Source: a virus (lineage: Duplodnaviria; Heunggongvirae; Uroviricota; Caudoviricetes). From it: DNA of 9,625 bases. Numbering within the stretch: position 1 is the stretch's first letter; each line of letters opens with the position of its first letter. Where the stretch lies: IMG/VR virus record IMGVR_UViG_2740892370_000019. One strand, written 5' to 3'. Under the pieces are notes generated by a model. It did no database searches. It was not told where the DNA came from and was given only the letters and a program-made list of their open reading frames with translations. Position numbers and translations under genes: made by a program. Below, in pieces: positions 1 through 9,625 of the stretch.

Positions 1-251
1 GGTCATGGCCTCCATAGTGATGGCGGGTCCTCCTTGTGGGGTGCCCTGCCACGGGGCGGGAGCATCGCGGAAAAAGGCTAGTTTTTGCATTTTTATTCGT
101 CATCACCACCAATGCAATATATTGATATGACTTGATGTTTTATTTTTCGGTGTCGATTTCGATTGTTTTTTGTTCATCACTGACGCATAACGCCCACCAG
201 CGCAACGCTGAAAGCCAGTCAGTAAACTGGCTTCGGTCATTGTGCACTACG

Positions 252-794
252 TTACTTGTCTTTATCCGGCTGAAACTTATCAGGCACATTTCCGGTAGTT
301 TCCATCAGATAATCGGACAGCATTCGCGGGATGTTTTCATCAAGTTTTGTGCATGCGTTACAGGCTCTGACAACTTCTTTTTTCAGGCCATCCAGCATGA
401 CGGGGGTCATCTGTGGGAAGCTCCTTTGCATAGTAAGCGGGAGGCTGTCCATGATTGATGAAATCTGACTCGCCAGTTTTGAAAGGGCGTACATGCAAAA
501 CTCTGTATCAATCACGTCACCGCGATCGCGCTCGTTTTTAAGTTCCTGCGCCTCCGCCTGTGCTGTCAGTAATCTGATCCTGACTCGTAAGAGTTCATCA
601 TCATCAATCTCGCCTTTGTCGTTTGTAAGCTGGCTAATTGCATTGTTAACCCTATTGTCTATCACGCTGGCAACATCATAAAACGCCTCACGGCCTTTAC
701 GTTCAACGGGAGTCACTCCCCACTTGTCGAATGCTGTAGCACTTACCCGGCAGCTTTGCGCCATGGTTTTTTTGTTCATCAGGTGCGATTTCAT
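252..794 (-). CDS. Terminase small subunit, lambda Nu1-like
   Basis: Translation aligns along its length with lambda Nu1 as I remember it (181 aa), e.g. LTAQAEAQELKNERDRGDVIDTEFCMYALSKLASQISSIMDSLPLTMQRSFP versus lambda LTRAQADAQELKNARDSAEVVETAFCTFVLSRIAGEIASILDGLPLSVQRRFP. It lies immediately downstream of a lambda-type cos site, as Nu1 does in lambda. The track start at 797 is a TTG; the first ATG is at 794 with GGGA upstream, and another ATG at 779 gives MNKK, matching the lambda N-terminus VNKK. Confidence 0.85.
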   Translation of the reverse strand: MKSHLMNKKTMAQSCRVSATAFDKWGVTPVERKGREAFYDVASVIDNRVNNAISQLTNDKGEIDDDELLRVRIRLLTAQAEAQELKNERDRGDVIDTEFCMYALSKLASQISSIMDSLPLTMQRSFPQMTPVMLDGLKKEVVRACNACTKLDENIPRMLSDYLMETTGNVPDKFQPDKDK

Positions 795-860
795 CAATAT
801 CCCAACTTGGTCAAGGTTTCAGGTTGGTGTGTTGGTGTTATCTTTCCCTTTTTATTCATG

Positions 861-985
861 GAGATAGAGCAAACAACAAAACCACCACCACCACCCTGAA
901 AAAGCTCATAAATAGCGAAAAACCGCGAGGTCGCCGCCCCGTAGCCTACCGGATCGCCGGAAAGGACCCGCCAGCCAGAACGGGC
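861..985 (-). other. Lambda-type cohesive-end site (cosQ-cosN region conserved, cosB side diverged)
   Basis: The reverse complement of 928..975 reads GCTGGCGGGTCCTTTCCGGCGATCCGGTAGGCTACG followed by GGGCGGCGACCT. This nearly matches the lambda right end GGGTCCTTTCCGGTGATCCGACAGGTTACG joined to the 12-nt cohesive end GGGCGGCGACCT (here at 928..939). The next 25 nt toward the TerS gene (CGCGGTTTTTCGCTATTTATGAG) also match the lambda left end, after which the sequence diverges and includes a (CCA)n/GGTGGTGGTGGTGG tract at 881..896. Confidence 0.8.
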
Positions 986-995
986 CCTAATTTCA

Positions 996-1379
996 TCAAC
1001 CAATCAACTTATAGCGACCATCCCGTGCATTGCGACGTACACGCTCAATCTTGAGGCATAGCGCCGCATCTGGCTTTTTTGGGACAGGTACGCGGCAATA
1101 TTCAGAAGCTCGAGGAATATTGTTTATCCAGTCGATCACTTCACTTAAATACCAGGCCTTACGCCCTTCCGTAACCTGTACGCGTTCGGGGAACTCTCCG
1201 CGAGCCTCAAGGTTTAGCAATGTGCGACGGCTAAGGGTAGTAAGTTCCATCACCTGATTCATATCAACAAGGCGTTCACTTAAACGCATTTTGTCAGCAA
1301 TAGCCTTTAATTCCTCTACTGCTGGATCCGGATACATCATTTCGGCAATTGGCTTAAGGTCATTGTAATGATTCTGCAT
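996..1379 (-). CDS. AlpA-family (phage excisionase/regulator-like) HTH protein with N- and C-terminal extensions, 127 aa
   Basis: The central segment LTTLSRRTLLNLEARGEFPERVQVTEGRKAWYLSEVIDWI fits the AlpA/Xis-type winged-helix signature (hydrophobic HTH, GxFP, R..W..SEV..W). The ATG at 1379 is preceded by AGGGGG at 6 nt and sits 11 nt after the stop of the upstream decoration gene, suggesting coupled expression. The stop abuts the cos site. Confidence 0.65.
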   Translation of the reverse strand: MQNHYNDLKPIAEMMYPDPAVEELKAIADKMRLSERLVDMNQVMELTTLSRRTLLNLEARGEFPERVQVTEGRKAWYLSEVIDWINNIPRASEYCRVPVPKKPDAALCLKIERVRRNARDGRYKLIG

Positions 1380-1390
1380 TGTATCCCCCT

Positions 1391-1732
1391 TTACACACGA
1401 GCCAGCGGCTGAACAGAAATACCTGAGCCAACAAACGCGGCAACCTTTGCCGACAGTTCTTTTACAGACTCAGGCCAGTTCAGAGCATCAACATTTAAAA
1501 CACCTGTCTTATAAACCTGTGCCTGTGTTTTTTTCGCTGTGTCGATTTGTACAGCGGAAACATAAACCGCTTTGCCTGCGCTCGTTCCATCCCATACCAC
1601 TAGCGCACCAGTTGCATCTTCCTGCATCAGTGGCGTAAACGCAGGTATTACCCCTTTATTGGCTGAAAATATCCCCAGCGTAGTAACCAGTGCTTCAGTG
1701 CCAGACATGAGTTCAGTGTAATGAGTAGCCAT
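1391..1732 (-). CDS. Head decoration protein, lambda gpD-like (113 aa)
   Basis: TPLMQEDATGALVVWDGTSAGKAVYVSAV...YKTGVLNVDALNWPES...AAFVGSGISV matches remembered lambda gpD ([29 protein letters not shown]...YKSGTFRYEDVLWPEA...AFAGTAISIV). Size matches gpD (about 110 aa). GGGGGAG Shine-Dalgarno before the ATG at 1732; 9 nt from the capsid gene stop. Confidence 0.85.
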   Translation of the reverse strand: MATHYTELMSGTEALVTTLGIFSANKGVIPAFTPLMQEDATGALVVWDGTSAGKAVYVSAVQIDTAKKTQAQVYKTGVLNVDALNWPESVKELSAKVAAFVGSGISVQPLARV

Positions 1733-1741
1733 TGCTCCCCC

Positions 1742-2788
1742 TTAGCCAATGCGAACGGTAACAAAACGATTGATGCGGGCCGGTATTGGCTGTGGTGCTG
1801 AATGTGTCTGCACATATTCAATAGCCGGATCACCAGGCACAATATAGTTTTTCGGTGCAAGTTCGGCTTTAGTCAGCCCCATCCGGATTAGCTCCGGATC
1901 CTGAATACCGCCATAAGCGACAATCCCCTGAAGAGCCGTATTGCCAAGCACCATCAAATCAGGATCAAGGAAATATTTTTCAGTTCCGTCCTCGTCGGTA
2001 TAACGCCCGCTGTAAACAACAATCGCAACATCGCCCATATACCCTTTAAAACTCACCGAATCACCAAGGTCTTTAAGGGCCGTTTCCAGTTCGGAATTAG
2101 AACCACGACGAGTATCCAGAGCCTCTTTTATCGCCCTGAATGAACGGTATTTCTTCCATACATTACCGCCCATAATGATAATATTAGTGACGCCCTCACT
2201 AAATTCTGCGTAGCTCTCAATATCATCATTTGGATCAAAAGCTTCTTTATCCTTACCTGACCACTCAGCACCGCCAGACTGAGTGATGATATTTTGTGGT
2301 TTAATATTCCAGTCCAGCTCATAACGTTCAATACCATCGCCCTCAATGATATTTTTCCCCGTTGTGATTGCCTGAACGGCAAGCCATTCAATACGTGCAC
2401 GAATAGCTTTAGCCTGATTTACAATCGCCTGTTTAACTTTAATATTACGCGCTCCAAAAGCATTGTATTGCTCAGGTGATACACCAGCAGGGCGCACAGC
2501 TAACTTATTTGGATCAATGCTGCTTTTCGGTTTCATATAGCCAGGGCGAATTGTTTTTGATTCGTATCCCTCATCTCGTGAAACTTTACTGCCCACCATA
2601 GGAGAGCAAAACGCCGCGATCGGGATATTTGGATCGTCGATCGTATCAAGAATAATTTCTCTCGATTCAAACATTACCGAGCGAGTGAAAAACAAACTGG
2701 TAAACAACGCATTTAATTTTTTTTGCACATCTTCAGCATTAGCCACCTGCACAAGCTGTGTAGGCGAATATAAGTCAACCATACTCAT
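1742..2788 (-). CDS. Major capsid protein, lambda gpE-like (about 347 aa)
   Basis: Long collinear similarity to remembered lambda gpE: N-terminus MSMVDLYSPTQLVQVANAE versus MSMYTTAQLLAANEQ; core NIITQSGGAEWSGKDKEAFDPNDDIESYAEFSEGVTNIII...FRAIKEALDTRRGSNSELETALKDLGDSVSFKGYMGDVAIVVYSGRY versus lambda NITQSGGTEWSKRDKSTYDPTDDIEAYALNASGVVNIIV...FKAVKEKLDTRRGSNSELETAVKDLGKAVSYKGMYGDVAIVVYSGQY. The track ORF (to 2869) is over-extended upstream; the true start is the ATG at 2788 (MSM...) or at 2782, the latter having AAAGAGG at ideal spacing. Confidence 0.9.
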   Translation of the reverse strand: MSMVDLYSPTQLVQVANAEDVQKKLNALFTSLFFTRSVMFESREIILDTIDDPNIPIAAFCSPMVGSKVSRDEGYESKTIRPGYMKPKSSIDPNKLAVRPAGVSPEQYNAFGARNIKVKQAIVNQAKAIRARIEWLAVQAITTGKNIIEGDGIERYELDWNIKPQNIITQSGGAEWSGKDKEAFDPNDDIESYAEFSEGVTNIIIMGGNVWKKYRSFRAIKEALDTRRGSNSELETALKDLGDSVSFKGYMGDVAIVVYSGRYTDEDGTEKYFLDPDLMVLGNTALQGIVAYGGIQDPELIRMGLTKAELAPKNYIVPGDPAIEYVQTHSAPQPIPARINRFVTVRIG

Positions 2789-2953
2789 CCTCTTTACATT
2801 CATTACAAATAATTGTGAATATATTCTATTACCGATGTCTGCTATGCGAATACATGCAACCAAGTGCAATGTTGTATAAAATATGCCGTGACAACTTCAG
2901 TGCTGATAATTCGTGTTAATGTATTTACTTCCTTTGGTCGGGATTTATGTAGC

Positions 2954-2994
2954 ATGCCGGAAAATCTATTTTTTTCCGGCATCTTTTTGTTTGC
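2954..2994 (+). terminator. Strong stem-loop with T-tract (intrinsic-terminator-like) between the SSB and capsid genes
   Basis: Perfect 11-bp inverted repeat ATGCCGGAAAA (2954..2964) / TTTTCCGGCAT (2972..2982) with a 7-nt loop, followed on the plus strand by CTTTTTGTTT. It is canonical only for plus-strand transcription; read on the minus strand the stem lacks a downstream U-tract, so any termination of the ssb transcript would be weak or factor-dependent. Confidence 0.45.
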
Positions 2995-2999
2995 AGAAT

Positions 3000-3422
3000 T
3001 TAAAACGGTATATTATCGCCGTACGGATCATCATTCCCCGACTGTTGTTTTGCCCTGTTCAGTGCGTCAGTGGCCTGCCCCTGCTGGCCTTTTTTGCCGC
3101 CCGGTCGCGCTGTTCGCGCACTGATCACGCTGTCTGCGATAACCTGCCAGCCCTGCCGCGTTTCGCCGTTCTGGCCTGTCCACTGGCTTACCTGCATGTT
3201 ACCCGCCACGCTCACCAGTTCGCCTTTGTGGTGTTTTGCCAGTGCGTCGGCCTGTCTGCCAAACGCCAGGACGGATAACCACATCATCGCCGTTCCGTCA
3301 TCTGCCTGGCTGCACGGAAGGGGGACCGCCATACTAGCCATCGCCATTTGTGTACCCTTGCTGGTGGTCTTTAACTGCGGGTCAGCCACCAGCCGTCCGT
3401 AAGCCGCTATCTGTGCTGTCAT
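3000..3422 (-). CDS. ssb: Single-stranded DNA-binding protein (SSB-like, OB-fold, 140 aa)
   Basis: OB-fold region (GRLVADPQLKTT..., WLSVLAFGRQADALAKHHKGELVSVAGNMQVSQWTGQNGETRQGWQVIADSV) aligns with remembered E. coli SSB ([50 protein letters not shown]). Gly/Gln-rich linker and acidic C-terminal tip ...NDDPYGDNIPF resemble the SSB ...DDDIPF tail. The start overlaps the stop of the upstream 80-aa gene (ATGA). Confidence 0.75.
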   Translation of the reverse strand: MTAQIAAYGRLVADPQLKTTSKGTQMAMASMAVPLPCSQADDGTAMMWLSVLAFGRQADALAKHHKGELVSVAGNMQVSQWTGQNGETRQGWQVIADSVISARTARPGGKKGQQGQATDALNRAKQQSGNDDPYGDNIPF

Positions 3423-3661
3423 GCTGTCTGCTCTCCGGTTTTAACGTTGATGGTTGTCACCTGTTCCGCTTCGGCAATCTCCCGTTCTGTCAGCGTGGCA
3501 AAGTTTGCAGCTGCCGTTGTCATGAATGCGCTTATCAGTTCGGGATGTGCTTTTGCATATCCTTCCCCCGTGTTTCGGTCGATGATTTTTATCGCCACTC
3601 TCAGCCAGTGCTCTGTAAGGTCAATAGCGCGGTAGTGTGGTTGTTTGCGGTTTGCCTTCAT
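3419..3661 (-). CDS. Hypothetical protein (80 aa), translationally coupled to the SSB-like gene
   Basis: Intact ORF starting at an ATG (3661) and ending in an ATGA overlap with the ssb start; the upstream Shine-Dalgarno is weak (GAGA). No family recognised from the sequence MKANRKQPHYRAIDLTEHWLRVAIKIIDRNTGEGYAKAHPELISAF... Confidence 0.5.
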   Translation of the reverse strand: MKANRKQPHYRAIDLTEHWLRVAIKIIDRNTGEGYAKAHPELISAFMTTAAANFATLTEREIAEAEQVTTINVKTGEQTA

Positions 3662-3701
3662 AGTTCAGATCTCAATTTTTCGTATATATATACAAAACAG
3701 T

Positions 3702-4024
3702 GCGGGTTATGCGGGTTAGCGGGTTAGCGGGTTATCTTCGCTTGCTAAGTATTTTTTATTCCTTAATATCAATACATTACAAAATTAACTGTTTACTGTT
3801 TAGCCGTGGCGTAACCCGCAAAATGCTCAAAATAACCCGCAAACGGGGTTTTTTCTGCGGGTTACGCGTGGCTGTTTGCTGTCACTTCCTGTTATTCATC
3901 TGCGGGTTATAATCGCACTTTTGCGGGTTATAACTGCCGTTTTGCGGGTTACGTGCGAGTTATTGATTTCCTTTTTATTCATGCAGTTAATGCACTTATA
4001 CACAGAGTAACCCGCATAACCCGC
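3702..4024. repeat. Iteron array and AT-rich region, putative replication origin
   Basis: Twelve copies of the 8-bp motif GCGGGTTA or its complement TAACCCGC: four tandem copies at 3702..3734; complement copies at 3812..3819, 3833..3840, 4008..4015, 4017..4024; direct copies at 3857..3864, 3902..3909, 3923..3930, 3944..3951, several extended to TTTTGCGGGTTA. They flank an AT-rich stretch at about 3735..3800, directly downstream of the primase-like gene. Confidence 0.7.
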
Positions 4025-4047
4025 AACTTTTCACCTCACACAGGGGG

Positions 4048-6171
4048 TTAATCTTCTGCCTCAGGCTGGAACATCAGCACGTAAAAAACATGCTGCTTCC
4101 CCCCAATTTTGCCGAGAGCCTTTTTCTTGTAACGGCGATCGTTACCCGCTTCCAGCATTCCGGCAGCACTCAACGCGCGGGCAAAGTGGGACGGGTTAAA
4201 TCCCTGTGCGATCTCCCCCTCAAACACATGAGGAAACGTGTAAAAACGGAACTCATCATCTTCATTTCTGATACTCCCCTTTCTGTATCCGGCAAGGTCT
4301 TTAATCGGTAAATCACGTTCATCACTGTTTGGGTAAGGAAGGTATCGACTGAACCCGAACGACGACAAAAACGCCTCAGCCTGTTCAACCATCTGTTTAA
4401 ATTCCCTGTTACCCGTGCCGAACTCCTTCACCCAGGCATTAAAGTTATGCTGTATTGCGTCCCGGCATTCCTGCGCGGCCCAGCCAGTTACATGACCGGA
4501 AAGCACAAGCGCGGCCTCCAGTATGGCGAAACGCTCACCCACGCGGTGGACCTGCTCGCCGTAGCTCTCCGGTATCAGGTTGCGCCACCGTTCGCGGCAT
4601 TCCCTTACCGTATCCTTTGCCTCCTGCTGGTGGCCTGCCAGCCATTTAACCCACTCACGACCCGCTGCCCCGTGATTTTCTGTCCAGGCATCCTTTAACG
4701 CGTCTGCGTGCGCCTTTCCGGTGCTGTATTCGTGAAAGTGCGTGGCTTTTTCCATCGGAACGTTAAGCAGGCGGACAAGCTGCCCCGCTTTGACTTTTAT
4801 CCCCTCCGTTTTGAGGAATGTCTCAACGTCCATTTCTCCGGTGCTGATTGCCACCGTGCGCCAGTGTTTTATCTCCCGGTTGCCGCCGTCCTTCGCCCCC
4901 TGTAATTTCCCGGAACCGTTAAACAACGTATAGGCTGACGTGGACACCTCCCGCGCGTTTCCGGCCTGGCCTATTTCATCCAGGGGTAACAGCCCGTCGT
5001 TGTGCGCCTCTGCCTCGTTAGCGATACCTAACGCTGTGCCGTACCAGGTCAGCCGTTGTGCGTCCGGCTCTCCCCATAAACTTGATGCGATGTTCTGCGT
5101 GGTGGTTTTCCCTGCCGATGACTGTTCGAAAAGATGTACCCCGAAGCCGTCAGCACCAACAAGGCCAATCAAAGGTGCTGCCAGTGACGTGGCAACACCC
5201 AGCATCATGGACGGATTGCCACCAGCCAGCCGCGCCACGCAGTCGCGCCAGCCCTCCGCCGTACCCGCAACCGAATAGCCATTAACAGCGGCACTTTTTC
5301 CGGTAAACAGGATCGGTTTTTCAGAATCACCAATGATTGAGCCGTCCGGCATGATATACGCGCCAAAATGCCAGCCCGTTGTTGTGCTTAGCTGCCATTC
5401 CTCATGGCTTCCGCTTAACTGCATCCAGTCAGCCAGGATAGCCCTGTATTTGCCGTTTGTTGTCACGTTCAGCCCGTGATCTTTAAGCAACCGCCAGCCG
5501 TCACGGTCGCCAATGCCACCACACGGGATCGCCATTGTGATGACTTCATGGTTTGCTAATTTTTTCCAGCGCATCACGCGGTAATGCTCTTTACCGATCG
5601 TCCCCGTTCCCAGTAGTTCAAGCGGAGAACATAACCACGTCTCAGGCCGGATAATTTCGCCTGACTGCTTATCCACTTTGGGCGTTACCCAGAAAACACC
5701 ATCGACGCGACTTTCAACGCGGGGCTTTAATTCATCATCCTGATAGCATGGCTCTTTTTTCTTTACAGGCAGTTCAACTACCTTTTTCTTTTCCGCCTGC
5801 TCTGCCCGTTCACGTTCCAGATATTCGCGCCAGTTCTCCCGTTTCTGGCTGTGCATTCCTTCAGGGTAATAATCAGCATCCCTGACACCTGCCGCTGCCA
5901 GTTTCTGCCCGATGGTATTAACAAGCCCCGGACGCAATAACCCCGCCTGGTAGAGACGCACGCGATAGCGTCCGTCCGGTACGATTTGCAGGTTGTCCAG
6001 TTCGGCAAGTTGTTGCTCTCCAAGCCAGACAGGTGGCACGTTATCGCCAGCCAGTCGCCCGTCCTGTTCCTGCCACTGCTTCGCATGTGCCCACGCATCA
6101 CTACCCGCAAAAATGATGACTTCCGTCATTTTGTCACGCGGCTGGTGTTTTAAATTTGGCGCTTTTTTCAT
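4048..6171 (-). CDS. Replication protein, primase/helicase-like (P4 alpha / D5-type family assignment tentative), about 707 aa
   Basis: Large ORF with a central P-loop-like motif FEQSSAGKTT. It is the last gene of an operon beginning near the operator region and lies next to the iteron array, the layout expected for a satellite pri-rep gene. The track start at 6186 is a GTG; the ATG at 6171 (MKKAPNL...) has GGAGAG at about 8 nt and overlaps the stop of the upstream gene. Family membership was not verified. Confidence 0.75.
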   Translation of the reverse strand: MKKAPNLKHQPRDKMTEVIIFAGSDAWAHAKQWQEQDGRLAGDNVPPVWLGEQQLAELDNLQIVPDGRYRVRLYQAGLLRPGLVNTIGQKLAAAGVRDADYYPEGMHSQKRENWREYLERERAEQAEKKKVVELPVKKKEPCYQDDELKPRVESRVDGVFWVTPKVDKQSGEIIRPETWLCSPLELLGTGTIGKEHYRVMRWKKLANHEVITMAIPCGGIGDRDGWRLLKDHGLNVTTNGKYRAILADWMQLSGSHEEWQLSTTTGWHFGAYIMPDGSIIGDSEKPILFTGKSAAVNGYSVAGTAEGWRDCVARLAGGNPSMMLGVATSLAAPLIGLVGADGFGVHLFEQSSAGKTTTQNIASSLWGEPDAQRLTWYGTALGIANEAEAHNDGLLPLDEIGQAGNAREVSTSAYTLFNGSGKLQGAKDGGNREIKHWRTVAISTGEMDVETFLKTEGIKVKAGQLVRLLNVPMEKATHFHEYSTGKAHADALKDAWTENHGAAGREWVKWLAGHQQEAKDTVRECRERWRNLIPESYGEQVHRVGERFAILEAALVLSGHVTGWAAQECRDAIQHNFNAWVKEFGTGNREFKQMVEQAEAFLSSFGFSRYLPYPNSDERDLPIKDLAGYRKGSIRNEDDEFRFYTFPHVFEGEIAQGFNPSHFARALSAAGMLEAGNDRRYKKKALGKIGGKQHVFYVLMFQPEAED

Positions 6172-6467
6172 TTCTGCTCTCTCCACGCGGCAATCATGTT
6201 TTTCAGTTCCTGTAGTTTTTTATCAACATCCATACATGACACATGGTTATTTCTGGAAGGCGGGATTTCCCGCCGGAATCTGCAAATAAAGATCTCCACG
6301 TTCAGCGAGCTATGAAATGAATAGCCATCACGAATAAAATACACACGGTCAAACATTATCGATTTTACTGTTACTCTGTTGCCGTTCTTATCCCAATAAA
6401 TAGCGCCGGGGATAATTTTGGGGTGTGCATAACCGCTGGCAGTCAAGCCAGATAAATATGTTCTCAT
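6168..6467 (-). CDS. Hypothetical protein (99 aa), AT-rich, coupled to the primase gene
   Basis: ATG at 6467 with GGGGA upstream; 6-nt gap from the preceding gene; stop overlaps the primase start. Visibly lower GC than the flanking primase gene. No family recognised. Confidence 0.6.
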   Translation of the reverse strand: MRTYLSGLTASGYAHPKIIPGAIYWDKNGNRVTVKSIMFDRVYFIRDGYSFHSSLNVEIFICRFRREIPPSRNNHVSCMDVDKKLQELKNMIAAWREQK

Positions 6468-6473
6468 GATTAT

Positions 6474-6794
6474 TTATCCCCGATTTGAATCAGTATTCGC
6501 TTTCTTTATGGCATTTAATGCATTTGTGGCATTTTCAATGGTGCACCGTAGCGAAATATCAAAATGCCCAAGCATTGCCAGTAACAAACCAATATTACCC
6601 ATATCAATGCGCATGGCCTTTTCGTCATAGTCCTCATTTTCTGACGCATGCCACATCAGGCTACCAATTGACGCAACAGCCATTGATATATTGTCAGTAG
6701 CCCCATCCGCAGCGGAATAAACCTTTTTAGCAATATCATGCTCACAGTTAAAATGCGGATTAATCAGGTACTGGTAATTTGACATATCAGGCAT
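6474..6794 (-). CDS. Hypothetical protein (106 aa), AT-rich
   Basis: The ATG at 6794 overlaps the stop of the upstream small ORF (ATGCCTGA overlap); compact operon arrangement. No family recognised. Confidence 0.6.
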   Translation of the reverse strand: MPDMSNYQYLINPHFNCEHDIAKKVYSAADGATDNISMAVASIGSLMWHASENEDYDEKAMRIDMGNIGLLLAMLGHFDISLRCTIENATNALNAIKKANTDSNRG

Positions 6795-6990
6795 GGAACA
6801 CCCCCTGACGAATACGGGCGGCGAATACCATCACGCAGCCAGCCGGGGATTGCTGGCGTGCTTCCTGTTCGCTGCTGGCCTCAATGGTAATCACGCGCGG
6901 TTGTGCCGTACTCAGGGCGATAAAACGCCAGATGTATTTATTCAGGTTGTGCGAGTCCCGCCCTTGCGGGTGTGTGGTATGATTTAGCAT
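6787..6990 (-). CDS. Hypothetical small protein (67 aa), first gene of the replication operon
   Basis: ATG at 6990 preceded by GAGGT at 5 nt; the stop overlaps the next gene start. The track shows this only as the C-terminal end of an implausible 367-aa read-through ORF. GC-rich, and an opposite-strand ORF (6793..6987) exists, so coding status is uncertain. Confidence 0.35.
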   Translation of the reverse strand: MLNHTTHPQGRDSHNLNKYIWRFIALSTAQPRVITIEASSEQEARQQSPAGCVMVFAARIRQGVFHA

Positions 6991-7087
6991 AGCTACCTCG
7001 ATAATCTTTCTATCGTTGGTGGTTAGAAGCCCGGTTAGTGTTAGCGCACTGCCGGGTTTCGTCGTTTCTGCACCTTGCATCAACAAG

Positions 7088-7160
7088 GTGTTAAACACCA
7101 ATTTAAGCCTAGGTGTTAAACACGTCAAGTGTTGAACACTTATTTTTTTTCCTGCATACT
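7088..7160. promoter_or_regulatory. Three palindromic operators with an overlapping candidate promoter for the plus-strand regulator gene
   Basis: GTGTTAAACAC at 7088..7098 and 7113..7123, and GTGTTGAACAC at 7129..7139; each has half-sites GTGTT/AACAC forming an inverted repeat. Centre spacings are about 25 and 16 bp. TTGAAC (7132..7137) lies inside the third operator, then a 17-bp spacer and CATACT (7155..7160), about 30 bp before the ATG at 7190. Confidence 0.55.
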
Positions 7161-7189
7161 GCATTTGTTTTTTGTAAGGGGTACACAAC

Positions 7190-7369
7190 ATGGCGACAAA
7201 AGCAGTAAACGCAAAATCACAAACAGTTGCGGCAAGGGTTCCGCATGAAGTTATGAACAATGTTGAGGCGGTAAAAATGCCTGGTGAAAGTACAGGGCAG
7301 TTTGTAACAGCAGCATTAAAGCGAGAAGTTGAATACCGCCAGCGTCGCAAGGCCAAAGAGCAGGAGTAA
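7190..7369 (+). CDS. Small ribbon-helix-helix-like DNA-binding protein (59 aa), candidate repressor
   Basis: Not in the ORF track (under 60 aa). MATKAVNAKSQTVAARVPHEVMNNVEAVKMPGESTGQFVTAALKREVEYRQRRKAKEQE: a TVAARVP beta-strand followed by two short helices fits the RHH (CopG/Arc-like) pattern. AAGGGG Shine-Dalgarno about 9 nt upstream; sits directly downstream of the operator triplet. Confidence 0.5.
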   Translation: MATKAVNAKSQTVAARVPHEVMNNVEAVKMPGESTGQFVTAALKREVEYRQRRKAKEQE

Positions 7370-7426
7370 CCATCACCAGCGCCGTGGTGCGGTGAACTGT
7401 GGCGCACAGGGTTACAGGTATCTACG

Positions 7427-7624
7427 ATGACTGACAAATCATTAAAGAAATTATCCTCATCCAGGGAAAAACAACGCAAAAACGCGGTAAGCGAACAAGA
7501 ACAGGAAAGATTCGCACCATGTGCGTTTGTCCTTGAGAAGTTCCTTAAAGAGTACAGGCGCACAAAAATGGGATCGCATACCTGGAAAACATCGCAGCAT
7601 GGCGATGCTAAAGAGCAGGAATAG
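7427..7624 (+). CDS. Hypothetical small basic protein (65 aa)
   Basis: ATG with AGG at about 7 nt; charged, Lys/Arg/Glu-rich composition. Lies between the RHH-like gene and the plus-strand terminator. An overlapping opposite-strand ORF (7457..7645) looks like low-complexity hydrophobic read-through. Confidence 0.3.
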   Translation: MTDKSLKKLSSSREKQRKNAVSEQEQERFAPCAFVLEKFLKEYRRTKMGSHTWKTSQHGDAKEQE

Positions 7625-7712
7625 CCCACCAGCAAGCCAGCACACTGATCACATTGCCCACCAGCCAGCAAATCGCTATGATGTTCGGGCTTATGTTTAG
7701 TGTTTTCCCATT

Positions 7713-7740
7713 GGCGACCGCCCCCGGTCGCCTTTGTTTT
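7713..7740 (+). terminator. Rho-independent terminator
   Basis: Perfect 8-bp GC-rich stem GGCGACCG (7713..7720) / CGGTCGCC (7725..7732) with loop CCCC, followed by TTTGTTTT (7733..7740). Placed where the plus-strand small genes converge on alpA. Confidence 0.65.
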
Positions 7741-7759
7741 ATGTGTCATATGCTCCCCT

Positions 7760-7969
7760 TTACGCTGCCTTTCCTGAATTAATGCGATCCCGGCTTTTAA
7801 CCCATTCCATAACCTCAGACTTAACCCAGCCAACCGAACGACCTCCAAGACTGATACGGGAGGGAAAGCGGCCTTGTTTTTCCATCTCATAACGAGTTGT
7901 ACGGCAAACGCCTGTTAGCTCTCTGCATTCTTTTTCACGGATTACACGATCTTCATTTATTTCGCGCAT
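7760..7969 (-). CDS. alpA: AlpA-family prophage regulatory protein (69 aa from the ATG at 7969; possible longer form from GTG at 8053)
   Basis: CRELTGVCRTTRYEMEKQGRFPSRISLGGRSVGWVKSEVMEWV matches the AlpA signature (HTH, G.FP, R.VGW..SEV.EW). Adjacent to and co-oriented with the integrase, as in CP4-57/P4-like elements. The track N-terminus starts at a GTG. Confidence 0.8.
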   Translation of the reverse strand: MREINEDRVIREKECRELTGVCRTTRYEMEKQGRFPSRISLGGRSVGWVKSEVMEWVKSRDRINSGKAA

Positions 7970-8053
7970 AAAAAGCCCTACATAAAATTTACGTATAGAA
8001 ATTTTTGTTTCGCTGTGGATATACGGGAAGGAATACTTCTTAGCTTTTTTCAC

Positions 8054-8386
8054 CTCTTAAATTGAATACGTAACCTTTCTGAACTTTATGTTCGTCAAAG
8101 TTCGCTAGAGTTTGCTGCTGTTCATAAAATCGTGTCACGAGTTTTTAAGCGACGCAACAAAAAATGTCGTCATTTGGCATGATACTTGAATTATCTTATT
8201 AAAAACAAATAGATAAACCATCAGGTGTTGGAATAATCAAGAAACAGAAAATAAGAACTCAGAAGAAGATATTTCAATTTTTTCGATGGTTGACACATAT
8301 AAAGTGAAGATATTTGCAGATATTTTCTGATATTCTACGATTTATTCACGGCTGTAATCTCTTAAAGAAAAAACAGCCGTAATTTG
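8054..8386. promoter_or_regulatory. AT-rich intergenic region between int and alpA carrying phased short repeats
   Basis: 333 bp with no convincing ORF. Three GATATT copies at 8309..8314, 8319..8324 and 8329..8334 with exact 10-bp phasing; a consensus TTGACA at 8290..8295; an inverted repeat CGGCTGT...ACAGCCG at about 8349..8379 just downstream of the int stop. Confidence 0.35.
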
Positions 8387-9625
8387 TCAAGAATTTTGGG
8401 TGTAAATTCGCGGGGTCATAACAACGATTTTTTCATCATTGTTCTGGAGAAGCTCGAGACGGTCTACCCATAGATTAAGAGCATCACGTTTTGCATCAAG
8501 ATAGCGGGAGTGGTTATAGACTCGTTGCATCCCTGGCATCTGGTGGGCTGTAAGCTGCTCGACAATATGCGGATCCACGCCTAAATCGTTCAGCATGGTT
8601 GTAAATGTGTGCCGGATATCGTGTAACGTCCAGGGGGCTTGATTAATTCGTCTGTGCGCTGTTCTTCCGTACTCTGCTACCGAAGATTGTCCTTTCAGTT
8701 CACCAAGCAATAAGCCCGTGTGTCTGTTCTGCTCCACCAGCTGCGTGATGAACGGCAAAATGCTTTCCGGTATTGGCCTGAATATGGCGACCTTCGTTTT
8801 GCTGTGCTCCTTCGGTACCGTCCAGAGCATTTCTTTAAAATCCCACTCCTGCACCTCAGAGCGCCTTAGCTCGGTGGTACGGCATCCGAAAACAATCAGG
8901 AGGCGAATTAGGGCGCTGTAGTACGGCGGGAATATTTTGTCATCCAGGGCGCGGAGTAATTCCCCAAGCTCCTTGTTTGTTAGTACGCGCTCGCTCACTT
9001 CTGCTTTTTTTCCCACATCACCGACAACCATATCATCAAGAACGTTGCTGATTGCGTATCGTCGTTTTCGGCAGTACTTAAGCGCCTGTTTGCATACCTG
9101 TAGCAAAAATCCGGCAGATACTGGGCTTCGCTTTGCCATCTGGTCAAAACATGCCAACCAGTGCCGTAGCTCGCATTTTTCCAACGGCAAAGCGCCAATC
9201 TGGCTGATTATGTGTTTATTGATCCGGCTTTTCAGTGATTCGTAGTCAGTGCGCTTTTCCTTTGCATACGATTCAAGCCAGTAAGTGAGCGCTTCCTTAA
9301 CTGTCACGGGGGCTAACGCATCCTGTACAGCACGATTAAGCTCATAGCGCGGATTTTTCCCCTCAGCCAGCCAGGCGCGACACTGTGCTGCTATTTCCCT
9401 GGCTGCTTTCAGGCTCAGATCGGGATAATTGCCCAGTCTCAGACGTTCCGGTGATACCTGCCTACCAGTTCCGGCCCTGTAAGTGAAATACCAGGTTAAC
9501 AGGCCGCTGGTGGAATGTCTTACGCTAAGATTGCCACCGTCATTAAAAAAGGCGTTTTTTGTGGTTGGTGATCCGCTTAATTTTCGTAAAAGAGTGTCGC
9601 TAAGTCTATGAATTGCGCTGCTCAT
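8387..9625 (-). CDS. int: Tyrosine site-specific integrase, P4-type (412 aa)
   Basis: Full-length ORF with the start at the window edge. The C-terminal catalytic region contains LHDIRHTFTT and ...GMQRVYNHSRYLD (His-x-x-Arg and the catalytic Tyr context). Size and the adjacent alpA are typical of P4-like integrase modules. Confidence 0.9.
   Translation of the reverse strand: MSSAIHRLSDTLLRKLSGSPTTKNAFFNDGGNLSVRHSTSGLLTWYFTYRAGTGRQVSPERLRLGNYPDLSLKAAREIAAQCRAWLAEGKNPRYELNRAVQDALAPVTVKEALTYWLESYAKEKRTDYESLKSRINKHIISQIGALPLEKCELRHWLACFDQMAKRSPVSAGFLLQVCKQALKYCRKRRYAISNVLDDMVVGDVGKKAEVSERVLTNKELGELLRALDDKIFPPYYSALIRLLIVFGCRTTELRRSEVQEWDFKEMLWTVPKEHSKTKVAIFRPIPESILPFITQLVEQNRHTGLLLGELKGQSSVAEYGRTAHRRINQAPWTLHDIRHTFTTMLNDLGVDPHIVEQLTAHQMPGMQRVYNHSRYLDAKRDALNLWVDRLELLQNNDEKIVVMTPRIYTQNS

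Follow-up and report, generated by a model that had tools for sequence, protein, structure and literature searches.

The 9,625-nucleotide stretch of viral DNA analysed here (IMG/VR record IMGVR_UViG_2740892370_000019; hereafter the window) very probably comprises about 89% of a 10,804-bp Gram-negative phage-inducible chromosomal island (PICI) of E. coli, which belongs to the EcCICFT073/EcCIIHE3034 family ('Type A' in SatelliteFinder) and occupies the cspD-clpS site. A helper-dependent life cycle, several steps of which are predicted from related islands, is proposed below as part of this reading. A preliminary description of this DNA, made from its letters only, had interpreted it as a mosaic satellite in which an integration and replication backbone is joined to head and packaging genes, and that interpretation holds. 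The novelty that it implied does not, and fails on the refuting condition that the description had itself set, since the family to which the island adds one more member has already been catalogued and, in part, characterised: its gene order is that of EcCICFT073, its attachment (att) site and the presence of a small terminase gene (terS) are shared with EcCIIHE3034, and the architecture has already been published (PMC6092414, PMC6739421, PMC10085698).

Identity and borders of the island

Comparison of the island junctions with the empty site of K-12 defined a unit of 10,804 bp, bounded by an 11-bp att core, ATAACTATCAT (= ATGATAGTTAT), that was recognised as the junction overlap and is perfect at both ends. 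The chromosome of strain 2015C-3163 has the island between clpS and yljB/cspD, with 12 kb of core genes on either side (ftsK ... clpA, clpS / island / yljB, cspD, macB). Outside the window are about 1 kb at the terS-distal end, carrying one further conserved gene of 94 aa, and about 0.18 kb past int, which hold the att core and the arm repeats. No tRNA or tmRNA was found within the window, the att site being intergenic. With host genes on both sides and no tRNA, the island is therefore free-standing and outside any prophage.

The content of the island follows the published definition of a PICI, whose core components are an integrase, an alpA-type regulator, a primase-replicase, a capsid morphogenesis gene and a small terminase (de Sousa et al. 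2023, PMC10085698). All five SatelliteFinder core components are present, together with none of the forbidden ones. The island is small (the range being about 8-15 kb), has direct att repeats and its own chromosomal site, and one of its ends is occupied by a tyrosine integrase gene, adjoined on the same strand by a regulator of the alpA family; a primase-replicase module follows, with a candidate origin of 12 iterons 3' of pri-rep, and then homologues of the lambda head genes E and D, terS and a lambda-type cos. Islands with all five components number 375, 97% of them from E. coli (PMC10085698). No tail, holin or lysis, portal, head-tail connector or large terminase gene was found when the 16 genes of the window were searched against Pfam and PHROGs and the RefSeq annotation of the whole island was inspected.

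The core ATGATAGTTAT and the cspD-clpS site recur in two islands of the Gram-negative PICI catalogue of Fillol-Salom et al. 2018, EcCIIHE3034 of 10.5 kb and EcCI18098 of 10.8 kb (PMC6092414 Table S1). The first resembles the window island closely, with identities of 99% for the integrase, 98% for YlcI, 93% for Icd, 89% for the single-stranded DNA-binding protein (SSB), 87% for AlpA and 87% for terS, and it has the same cosB, the same three GTGTTnAACAC operators, and the same gene order, att core and site. It differs in its primase, which is of the D5_N type and lacks the GCGGGTTA iterons, whereas the window has a DUF927 Rep with iterons; in its E and D alleles (55% and 54% identity); in having a c1501-like gene where the window has the gene that we call HTH127; and in cos2, which is degenerate in the window. 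EcCI18098, compared by its catalogue entry, shares the att core, the site and the 10.8-kb size, and could be the same variant as the window island.

EcCICFT073 shares the order int-alpA-(small plus-strand genes)-icd-...-DUF4222-pri-hypothetical-SSB-capsid-decoration-X-cos-packaging gene-hypothetical, a cosQ and cosN identical to those of lambda, and homologues of most genes (PMC6092414, PMC6739421), among them Icd (98% identity), YlcI (61%) and AlpA (56%). In both EcCICFT073 and EcCIIHE3034 the DUF4222 gene is found where it is in the window. In contrast to the window, which has a full-length Nu1 homologue and another cosB, EcCICFT073 carries rppA (144 aa, with no tail for binding the large terminase, TerL) and depends on the small terminase protein (TerS) of its helper; its att site is ycfD-phoQ, and it has a perC gene that the window island lacks. 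The differences from the catalogued islands are whole-module swaps: the helicase with its iterons, the E/D pair, HTH127 for c1501, and terS for rppA.

A tandem repeat, ATTAACTACACCATT(A/G)ACTACACCG, is located inside both island ends, just beyond the ends of the window (L001 11085-11109 and 21657-21681), and is likely an arm-type site of the integrase. The same repeat is the reverse complement of the 'att core' given for EcCIDI14 in the 2018 catalogue (PMC6092414).

Gene content and the P4 alternative

Searches of Pfam, PHROG and NCBIfam supported 16 credible genes in the window, 14 of them on the minus strand; the only plus-strand genes are two small ones (7190-7369 and 7427-7624). Every part named in the preliminary description (integrase, alpA, switch region, primase with iterons, SSB, E, D, cos and Nu1) was recovered by family or sequence matches, as were the predominance of one strand and the shifts in base composition between modules: GC content is 0.55-0.59 in the primase and SSB genes, 0.40-0.42 in the DUF4222 and hyp106 genes, 0.42-0.49 in the head genes and 0.32 in the spacer between int and alpA. 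The features are listed below with coordinates, strand and supporting matches (E values).

8387-9625 (-), int, tyrosine integrase with an arm-binding domain (Phage_integrase 1.9e-18 and Arm-DNA-bind_3)
7760-7969 (-), alpA (Phage_AlpA 1.6e-17)
7713-7732, strong hairpin terminator after the gene for the 65-aa protein
7427-7624 (+), 65-aa protein, function not assigned (phrog_21027 4e-46)
7190-7369 (+), YlcI/YnfO-family protein, 59 aa, divergent from icd (NCBIfam YlcI_YnfO_N 2e-16)
6991-7139, switch region, with a candidate antisense RNA and three palindromes
6787-6990 (-), Icd-like protein, 67 aa, first gene of the leftward operon (NCBIfam phage_ICD_like 1.7e-19)
6474-6794 (-), hyp106, 106 aa (phrog_15327 1e-70)
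6168-6467 (-), DUF4222 protein, translationally coupled to pri-rep (DUF4222 2.9e-17)
4048-6171 (-), pri-rep, fused primase-replicative helicase, 707 aa (DUF927 2e-47; phrog_1139 'DNA primase' 1e-180)
3702-4024, putative replication origin, iterons in both orientations
3419-3661 (-), conserved 80-aa protein (phrog_1231 7e-49)
3000-3422 (-), SSB (Pfam SSB 1.7e-15)
2783-2999 (-), AT-rich spacer ahead of the capsid operon (GC 0.375)
1742-2782 (-), major capsid protein, lambda E family, 346 aa (Phage_cap_E 1.5e-41, profile positions 4-327 of 329)
1391-1732 (-), head decoration protein, lambda D family, 113 aa (HDPD 2.3e-15; phrog_49)
996-1379 (-), HTH127, AlpA-family winged-helix protein, 127 aa (Phage_AlpA 1.4e-8; phrog_2790 1.8e-48; PDB 8c3t, AlpA family, 1.6e-10)
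928-975 (-), cosN with an upstream cosQ-like GGGTCCTTTCCGG; positions 928-939 are the lambda cosN GGGCGGCGACCT without a mismatch
795-927 (-), cosB-like region between cosN and terS
252-794 (-), terS, full-length Nu1-family small terminase, 180 aa (Phage_Nu1 9.8e-23; phrog_57 6e-52)
22-95 (+), cos2 remnant, a degenerate inverted second cos with a cosN-like GGGCGGGAGCAT at 54-65

A P4-like satellite that carries lambda-family head genes in place of sid, psu and delta would share several of these components, namely a P4-type arm-binding integrase, an AlpA/Vis-family regulator, an Icd-like gene and a primase, and the combination of int, alpA and primase alone also fits P4 in SatelliteFinder (PMC10085698). 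We nevertheless find this reading scarcely credible. Neither psu, delta, sid nor epsilon was found in any open reading frame (ORF) by Pfam and PHROG searches; a P2/P4 cos was not found with 3 mismatches allowed, cosN being that of lambda; the helicase is of the DUF927 and not the D5_N/Pox_D5 type; and Fillol-Salom et al. expressly set such islands apart from P4 (PMC6092414). The preliminary description had noted the lack of sid, psu and delta and had placed the element neither with classical P4 nor with lambdoid prophages, which is borne out by the flanking host genes and by the lack of P4, tail, portal and terL genes. Its 'P4/PICI-type' backbone stands as regards PICI; P4-type replication does not, the DUF927 helicase matching a staphylococcal island protein and Cch instead.

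The cos site and the small terminase

The cohesive-end 12-mer of lambda, GGGCGGCGACCT, occurs once in the window (928-939, on the gene strand), between the HTH127 gene and terS, and cosQ, cosN and I2 are all conserved with lambdoid phages. Among 50,697 phage records the closest match of the TerS protein was N15 gp1 (47.5% identity). TerS shows about 37% identity with lambda Nu1, and 87% with the TerS of EcCIIHE3034. At residues ~49-59 of lambda Nu1, TerS and N15 gp1 have a deletion in common, and TerS keeps the C-terminal motif LDExIPxxLxxY of lambda and N15, which falls within the part that contacts the large terminase.

In EcCICFT073, which has no terS, RppA forms a heterodimer with the TerS of the helper, which is thereby redirected to the island cosB (PMC6739421). 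We rejected the possibility that the gene after cos in the window encodes an Rpp, as the alignment identified a full-length Nu1 homologue and there was no PDB match to RppC. RppA and TerS are 17% identical and align over the N-terminal DNA-binding part only, RppA lacking the C-terminal third. A PDB search with this gene returned no match to either RppC or Nu1.

The cosB-like region that follows cosN contains (GGT)4 at positions 48-59 counted from the first cosN base, followed by TTGTTGTTT, and is bracketed by the inverted repeat TTTCAGGGTGGTG / CACCAACCTGAAA. In N15, the R3 site is at bp 48-59 (Feiss et al. 2015, PMC4669245), which is the position of the G-rich triplet repeat in the window; the two also have related TerS proteins. 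They differ in that the R3-N15 match is 7 of 12 positions, the window cosN is that of lambda (N15 differs at 2 of 12 positions) and the window has no large terminase gene. The roughly 110 bp after I2 are common only to the terS-type island EcCIIHE3034, and are unlike the cosB of EcCICFT073 (rppA type) or of lambdoid prophages. In E. coli strain 104 similarity to the late module extends only to about 20 bp beyond cosN, where other genes take over, so that this strain lacks both cosB and terS; the two therefore behave as one exchangeable unit.

We infer from these sequences that the island TerS would bind a private cosB and recruit the lambda-type large terminase of the helper, which would be the cos equivalent of the TerS strategy of Staphylococcus aureus pathogenicity islands (SaPIs). 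The pac-type SaPIs likewise use their own TerS to redirect the helper large terminase, and have a related type of Rep helicase (PDB 8tch). The window island differs from them in using cos and not headful packaging, in having no Ppi or Cpm homologue, and in being regulated through AlpA and not Stl.

The second cos of the window is a remnant that aligns with the intact inverted cos2 found in the same place in EcCICFT073 and EcCIIHE3034, and with the window's own cos1. Its GGGCGGGAGCAT differs from the cosN GGGCGGCGACCT by one gap and two substitutions, and it is probably non-functional. Four island units amount to 43.2 kb, or 89% of the lambda length, which fits the packaging of multimers into helper-sized heads as with EcCICFT073, a satellite packaged as phage-sized DNA (PMC6092414).

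A 69-aa ORF with a TTG start (794-1003, minus strand) spans the cos site; it matches phrog_11159 (E 1.5e-40) and has no RefSeq annotation. It may not be a gene, and its conservation may merely mirror that of the cos DNA.

The capsid, decoration and HTH127 genes

The preliminary description had called the head and packaging module 'lambda-derived'. The genes are indeed of lambda families and cosN is exact, but the term is overstated, with N15 gp1 as the nearest relative of TerS and a capsid protein whose best match among the phage records, lambda E, is 41.5% identical. The capsid is 55% identical to c1499 of EcCICFT073 and the decoration protein 54% identical to c1500, two proteins reported by Fillol-Salom et al. 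in 2018 (PMC6092414); the E/D pair is a second allelic lineage relative to the EcCICFT073 pair. By these sequence comparisons the head genes are old satellite-borne lineages and not a recent capture from lambda.

When one genome per bacterial species was scanned, the capsid, decoration and HTH127 genes were seen to be inherited together, as a trio, in Kluyvera, Superficieibacter, Cedecea and Kosakonia, with identities to the window proteins of 79-86% for the capsid, 68-77% for the decoration protein and 64-72% for HTH127. The Cedecea and Kosakonia islands (L011 and L012) are inserted in the E genes of lambda-like prophages, and the closest relatives of the trio outside E. coli thus include two helper-embedded PICIs of the kind represented by 11capE (PMC10111431). 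The window island differs from these in being chromosomal and intergenic, and in its integrase, which has only about 42% identity to those of the two islands.

We estimated the ratio of nonsynonymous to synonymous substitution rates (dN/dS) from the relatives in other genera, the near-identical E. coli copies having yielded too few substitutions. Across five genera the ratio was 0.02-0.07 for the capsid, 0.07-0.11 for the decoration protein and 0.09-0.17 for HTH127, values that are approximate since dS is saturated. All three ORFs have identical lengths across the five genera, and nearly all of the 99 HTH127 homologues are 127 aa long. The low dN/dS together with the constant ORF lengths indicates that the trio proteins are kept by selection in satellites. 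They are functional, and their likeliest role is to join in, or remodel, head assembly with particular helpers.

Conserved capsid and decoration genes raise the question of whether the island is a capsid-forming PICI (cf-PICI), or an intermediate towards one, that would need the helper for tails only and make small heads from its own proteins. It does have its own capsid, decoration protein, terS and cos, and the head genes are satellite-specific lineages under strong selection. However, the defining portal, protease or scaffold, head-tail adaptor or connector, terL and HNH genes (PMC10085698) are lacking, the coding space is fully accounted for, and EcCICFT073, with the same E/D arrangement, packages phage-sized DNA. 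We regard the capsid-forming reading as very improbable.

We considered HTH127 as an Rpp-like or scaffold-like protein and discarded the idea, as BLASTP detected no similarity to RppA, c1501 or lambda Nu3; an AlphaFold model built on a 20-sequence alignment had a confidence score (pLDDT) of 50. The position of HTH127 is held in EcCICFT073 and EcCIIHE3034 by c1501 (L003 14084-14497 in EcCICFT073), a protein of 137 aa. A Nu3-like scaffold function for c1501 was also set aside, given only a PHROG match, to the C-terminal portion of the head maturation protease family (E 1e-8), and no pairwise similarity to lambda Nu3. The spacer of the capsid operon has a hairpin at 2954-2982 and a -35/-10-like site at 2850-2823, both identified as consensus matches only.

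The genes that follow the trio vary. In Cedecea there is a TIR-like ORF of 382 aa (L011 12106-13254, minus strand) and in Kluyvera an ORF resembling lambda gpI (L009 12062-12661, plus strand), each so named from a reading of its sequence; E. coli strain 104 has DUF262 and HEPN genes according to its RefSeq annotation (L014 1-1385). In the window, PADLOC gave no convincing defence match among the small ORFs (including hyp106) or the primase, and only two marginal ones for HTH127 (E 0.003-0.005).

The replication module

The iteron GCGGGTTA occurs in 12 exact copies, all within 3702-4024, compared to 0.34 expected by chance, and these flank an AT-rich core with a site matching the integration host factor (IHF) consensus (3767-3779). 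Among the islands compared, GCGGGTTA was present only in those having a DUF927 Rep, a restriction that supports its assignment as the cognate origin. The origin of PICIs has been located directly 3' of pri-rep (PMC6092414), which is where the GCGGGTTA cluster lies, and 3702-4024 is the predicted replication origin of the DUF927-type Rep.

The helicase part of pri-rep matches a staphylococcal 'pathogenicity island protein' (PDB 8tch, 4e-15) and the Cch helicase of SCCmec (PDB 5dgk). Its resemblance to the EcCICFT073 primase is confined to the N-terminal ~370 aa (37% identity), the helicase of EcCICFT073 and EcCIIHE3034 being of the D5_N/Pox_D5 type as opposed to DUF927 in the window. Several allelic types of AlpA and Pri-Rep have already been noted among E. 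coli PICIs (PMC6092414), and mosaicism of this kind is therefore expected. The 80-aa protein encoded next to the iterons (3419-3661) is 92% identical to its EcCICFT073 and EcCIIHE3034 counterparts.

The window and the copy in strain 2015C-3163 are exactly one 8-bp GCGGGTTA unit (window 3735) and one substitution apart, so that iteron number varies among otherwise identical islands.

The switch region

Divergent promoters are found at 6991-7189. Three GTGTTnAACAC palindromes (7088-7139; 0.4 expected) overlie the promoter-like site of the icd operon; they are kept in four cspD-clpS islands and absent from EcCICFT073, and in sequence they look like operators for an island-specific regulator. By homology, the product of alpA would be the activator of the island cycle, a role demonstrated for AlpA in EcCICFT073 (PMC6092414).

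A candidate cis-antisense small RNA was noted on the plus strand (6991-7063, within 6991-7100), opposite the leader of the Icd-like gene. Its match to SymR in Rfam is below threshold (34 bits, gathering score 61, E 0.0018). The plus strand folds at -50.3 kcal/mol (z -7.7) versus -36.1 (z -3.4) for the minus strand, and six islands keep the hairpins, in which six base pairs are doubly compensated and many others are G-U pairs valid only on the plus strand.

Distribution in E. coli

Of the 5,426 complete E. coli genomes searched, 2,425 matched the window in some part and 15 carried the mosaic as a whole (coverage of 80% or more). The late module was detected in 264, and the window terS in about 970, including Nissle 1917, ATCC 25922 and O157:H7 strains. 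Seven complete genomes have near-identical copies of the window (99.6-99.9%); their sources include human, cattle and water-buffalo, and an O103:H2 strain and a strain named ST361 are among them.

Proposed life cycle

In the cycle that we propose, a helper lambdoid phage would turn on alpA and AlpA would activate the island, as demonstrated for EcCICFT073 and carried over here by homology. The integrase would then excise a circle of about 10.8 kb at ATGATAGTTAT, where the att structure itself is observed, and the DUF4222 protein, Pri-Rep and SSB would replicate the circle from the GCGGGTTA iterons, whose co-variation with Rep is likewise observed. The island's own N15-like TerS would act on the island cosB, with its Nu1-type C-terminus recruiting the helper large terminase, and the lambda-identical cosN would be cut. 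Concatemers of about four units (43.2 kb) would fill heads built by the helper, judging from their size and from the phage-sized packaging of EcCICFT073.

Several points weigh against this scheme. EcCIIHE3034 and EcCI18098 transferred at <1 to 110 colony-forming units (CFU) from their native strains, as compared to 10^3 to 10^5 for EcCICFT073 (PMC6092414 Table 1), and TerS-type islands may therefore be poorly mobile, or without a helper in those strains. The cosB assignment comes only from position and the 7/12 resemblance to N15 R3, and the IHF consensus was not found in cosB. In EcCICFT073, deletion of the capsid or the decoration gene changed neither transfer nor interference with lambda (PMC6092414), which leaves the role of the capsid unproven.

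The poor transfer of the two related islands and the want of a known helper, together with the degenerate second cos, are also what would be expected of a defective, immobile satellite or prophage remnant that is simply inherited with the chromosome. We consider such a remnant unlikely, as all genes are intact and both att cores perfect, near-identical copies exist in the seven complete genomes of varied sources, modules have been reshuffled between islands at the same site, purifying selection is strong, and copies that are otherwise identical still differ in their number of iterons.

Discussion

As a classification, the assignment of the window to this PICI family is of small importance: a large share of E. 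coli genomes carry such islands, and detection tools already include them. Beyond this, we tentatively suggest that TerS-type cos PICIs may follow a second hijack route, which would combine an N15-like TerS, a private cosB with (GGT)4 and an inverted repeat, and direct use of the large terminase of the helper, with the trio as a helper-specific module for capsid assembly; this is a possibility that we do not hold as the probable one. If it were true, islands using this route would sit mechanistically between classical PICIs and capsid-forming PICIs. The island is a convenient place to ask how cos islands with a complete TerS and no Rpp compete with their helper for packaging, and what conserved, satellite-specific capsid and decoration genes do.

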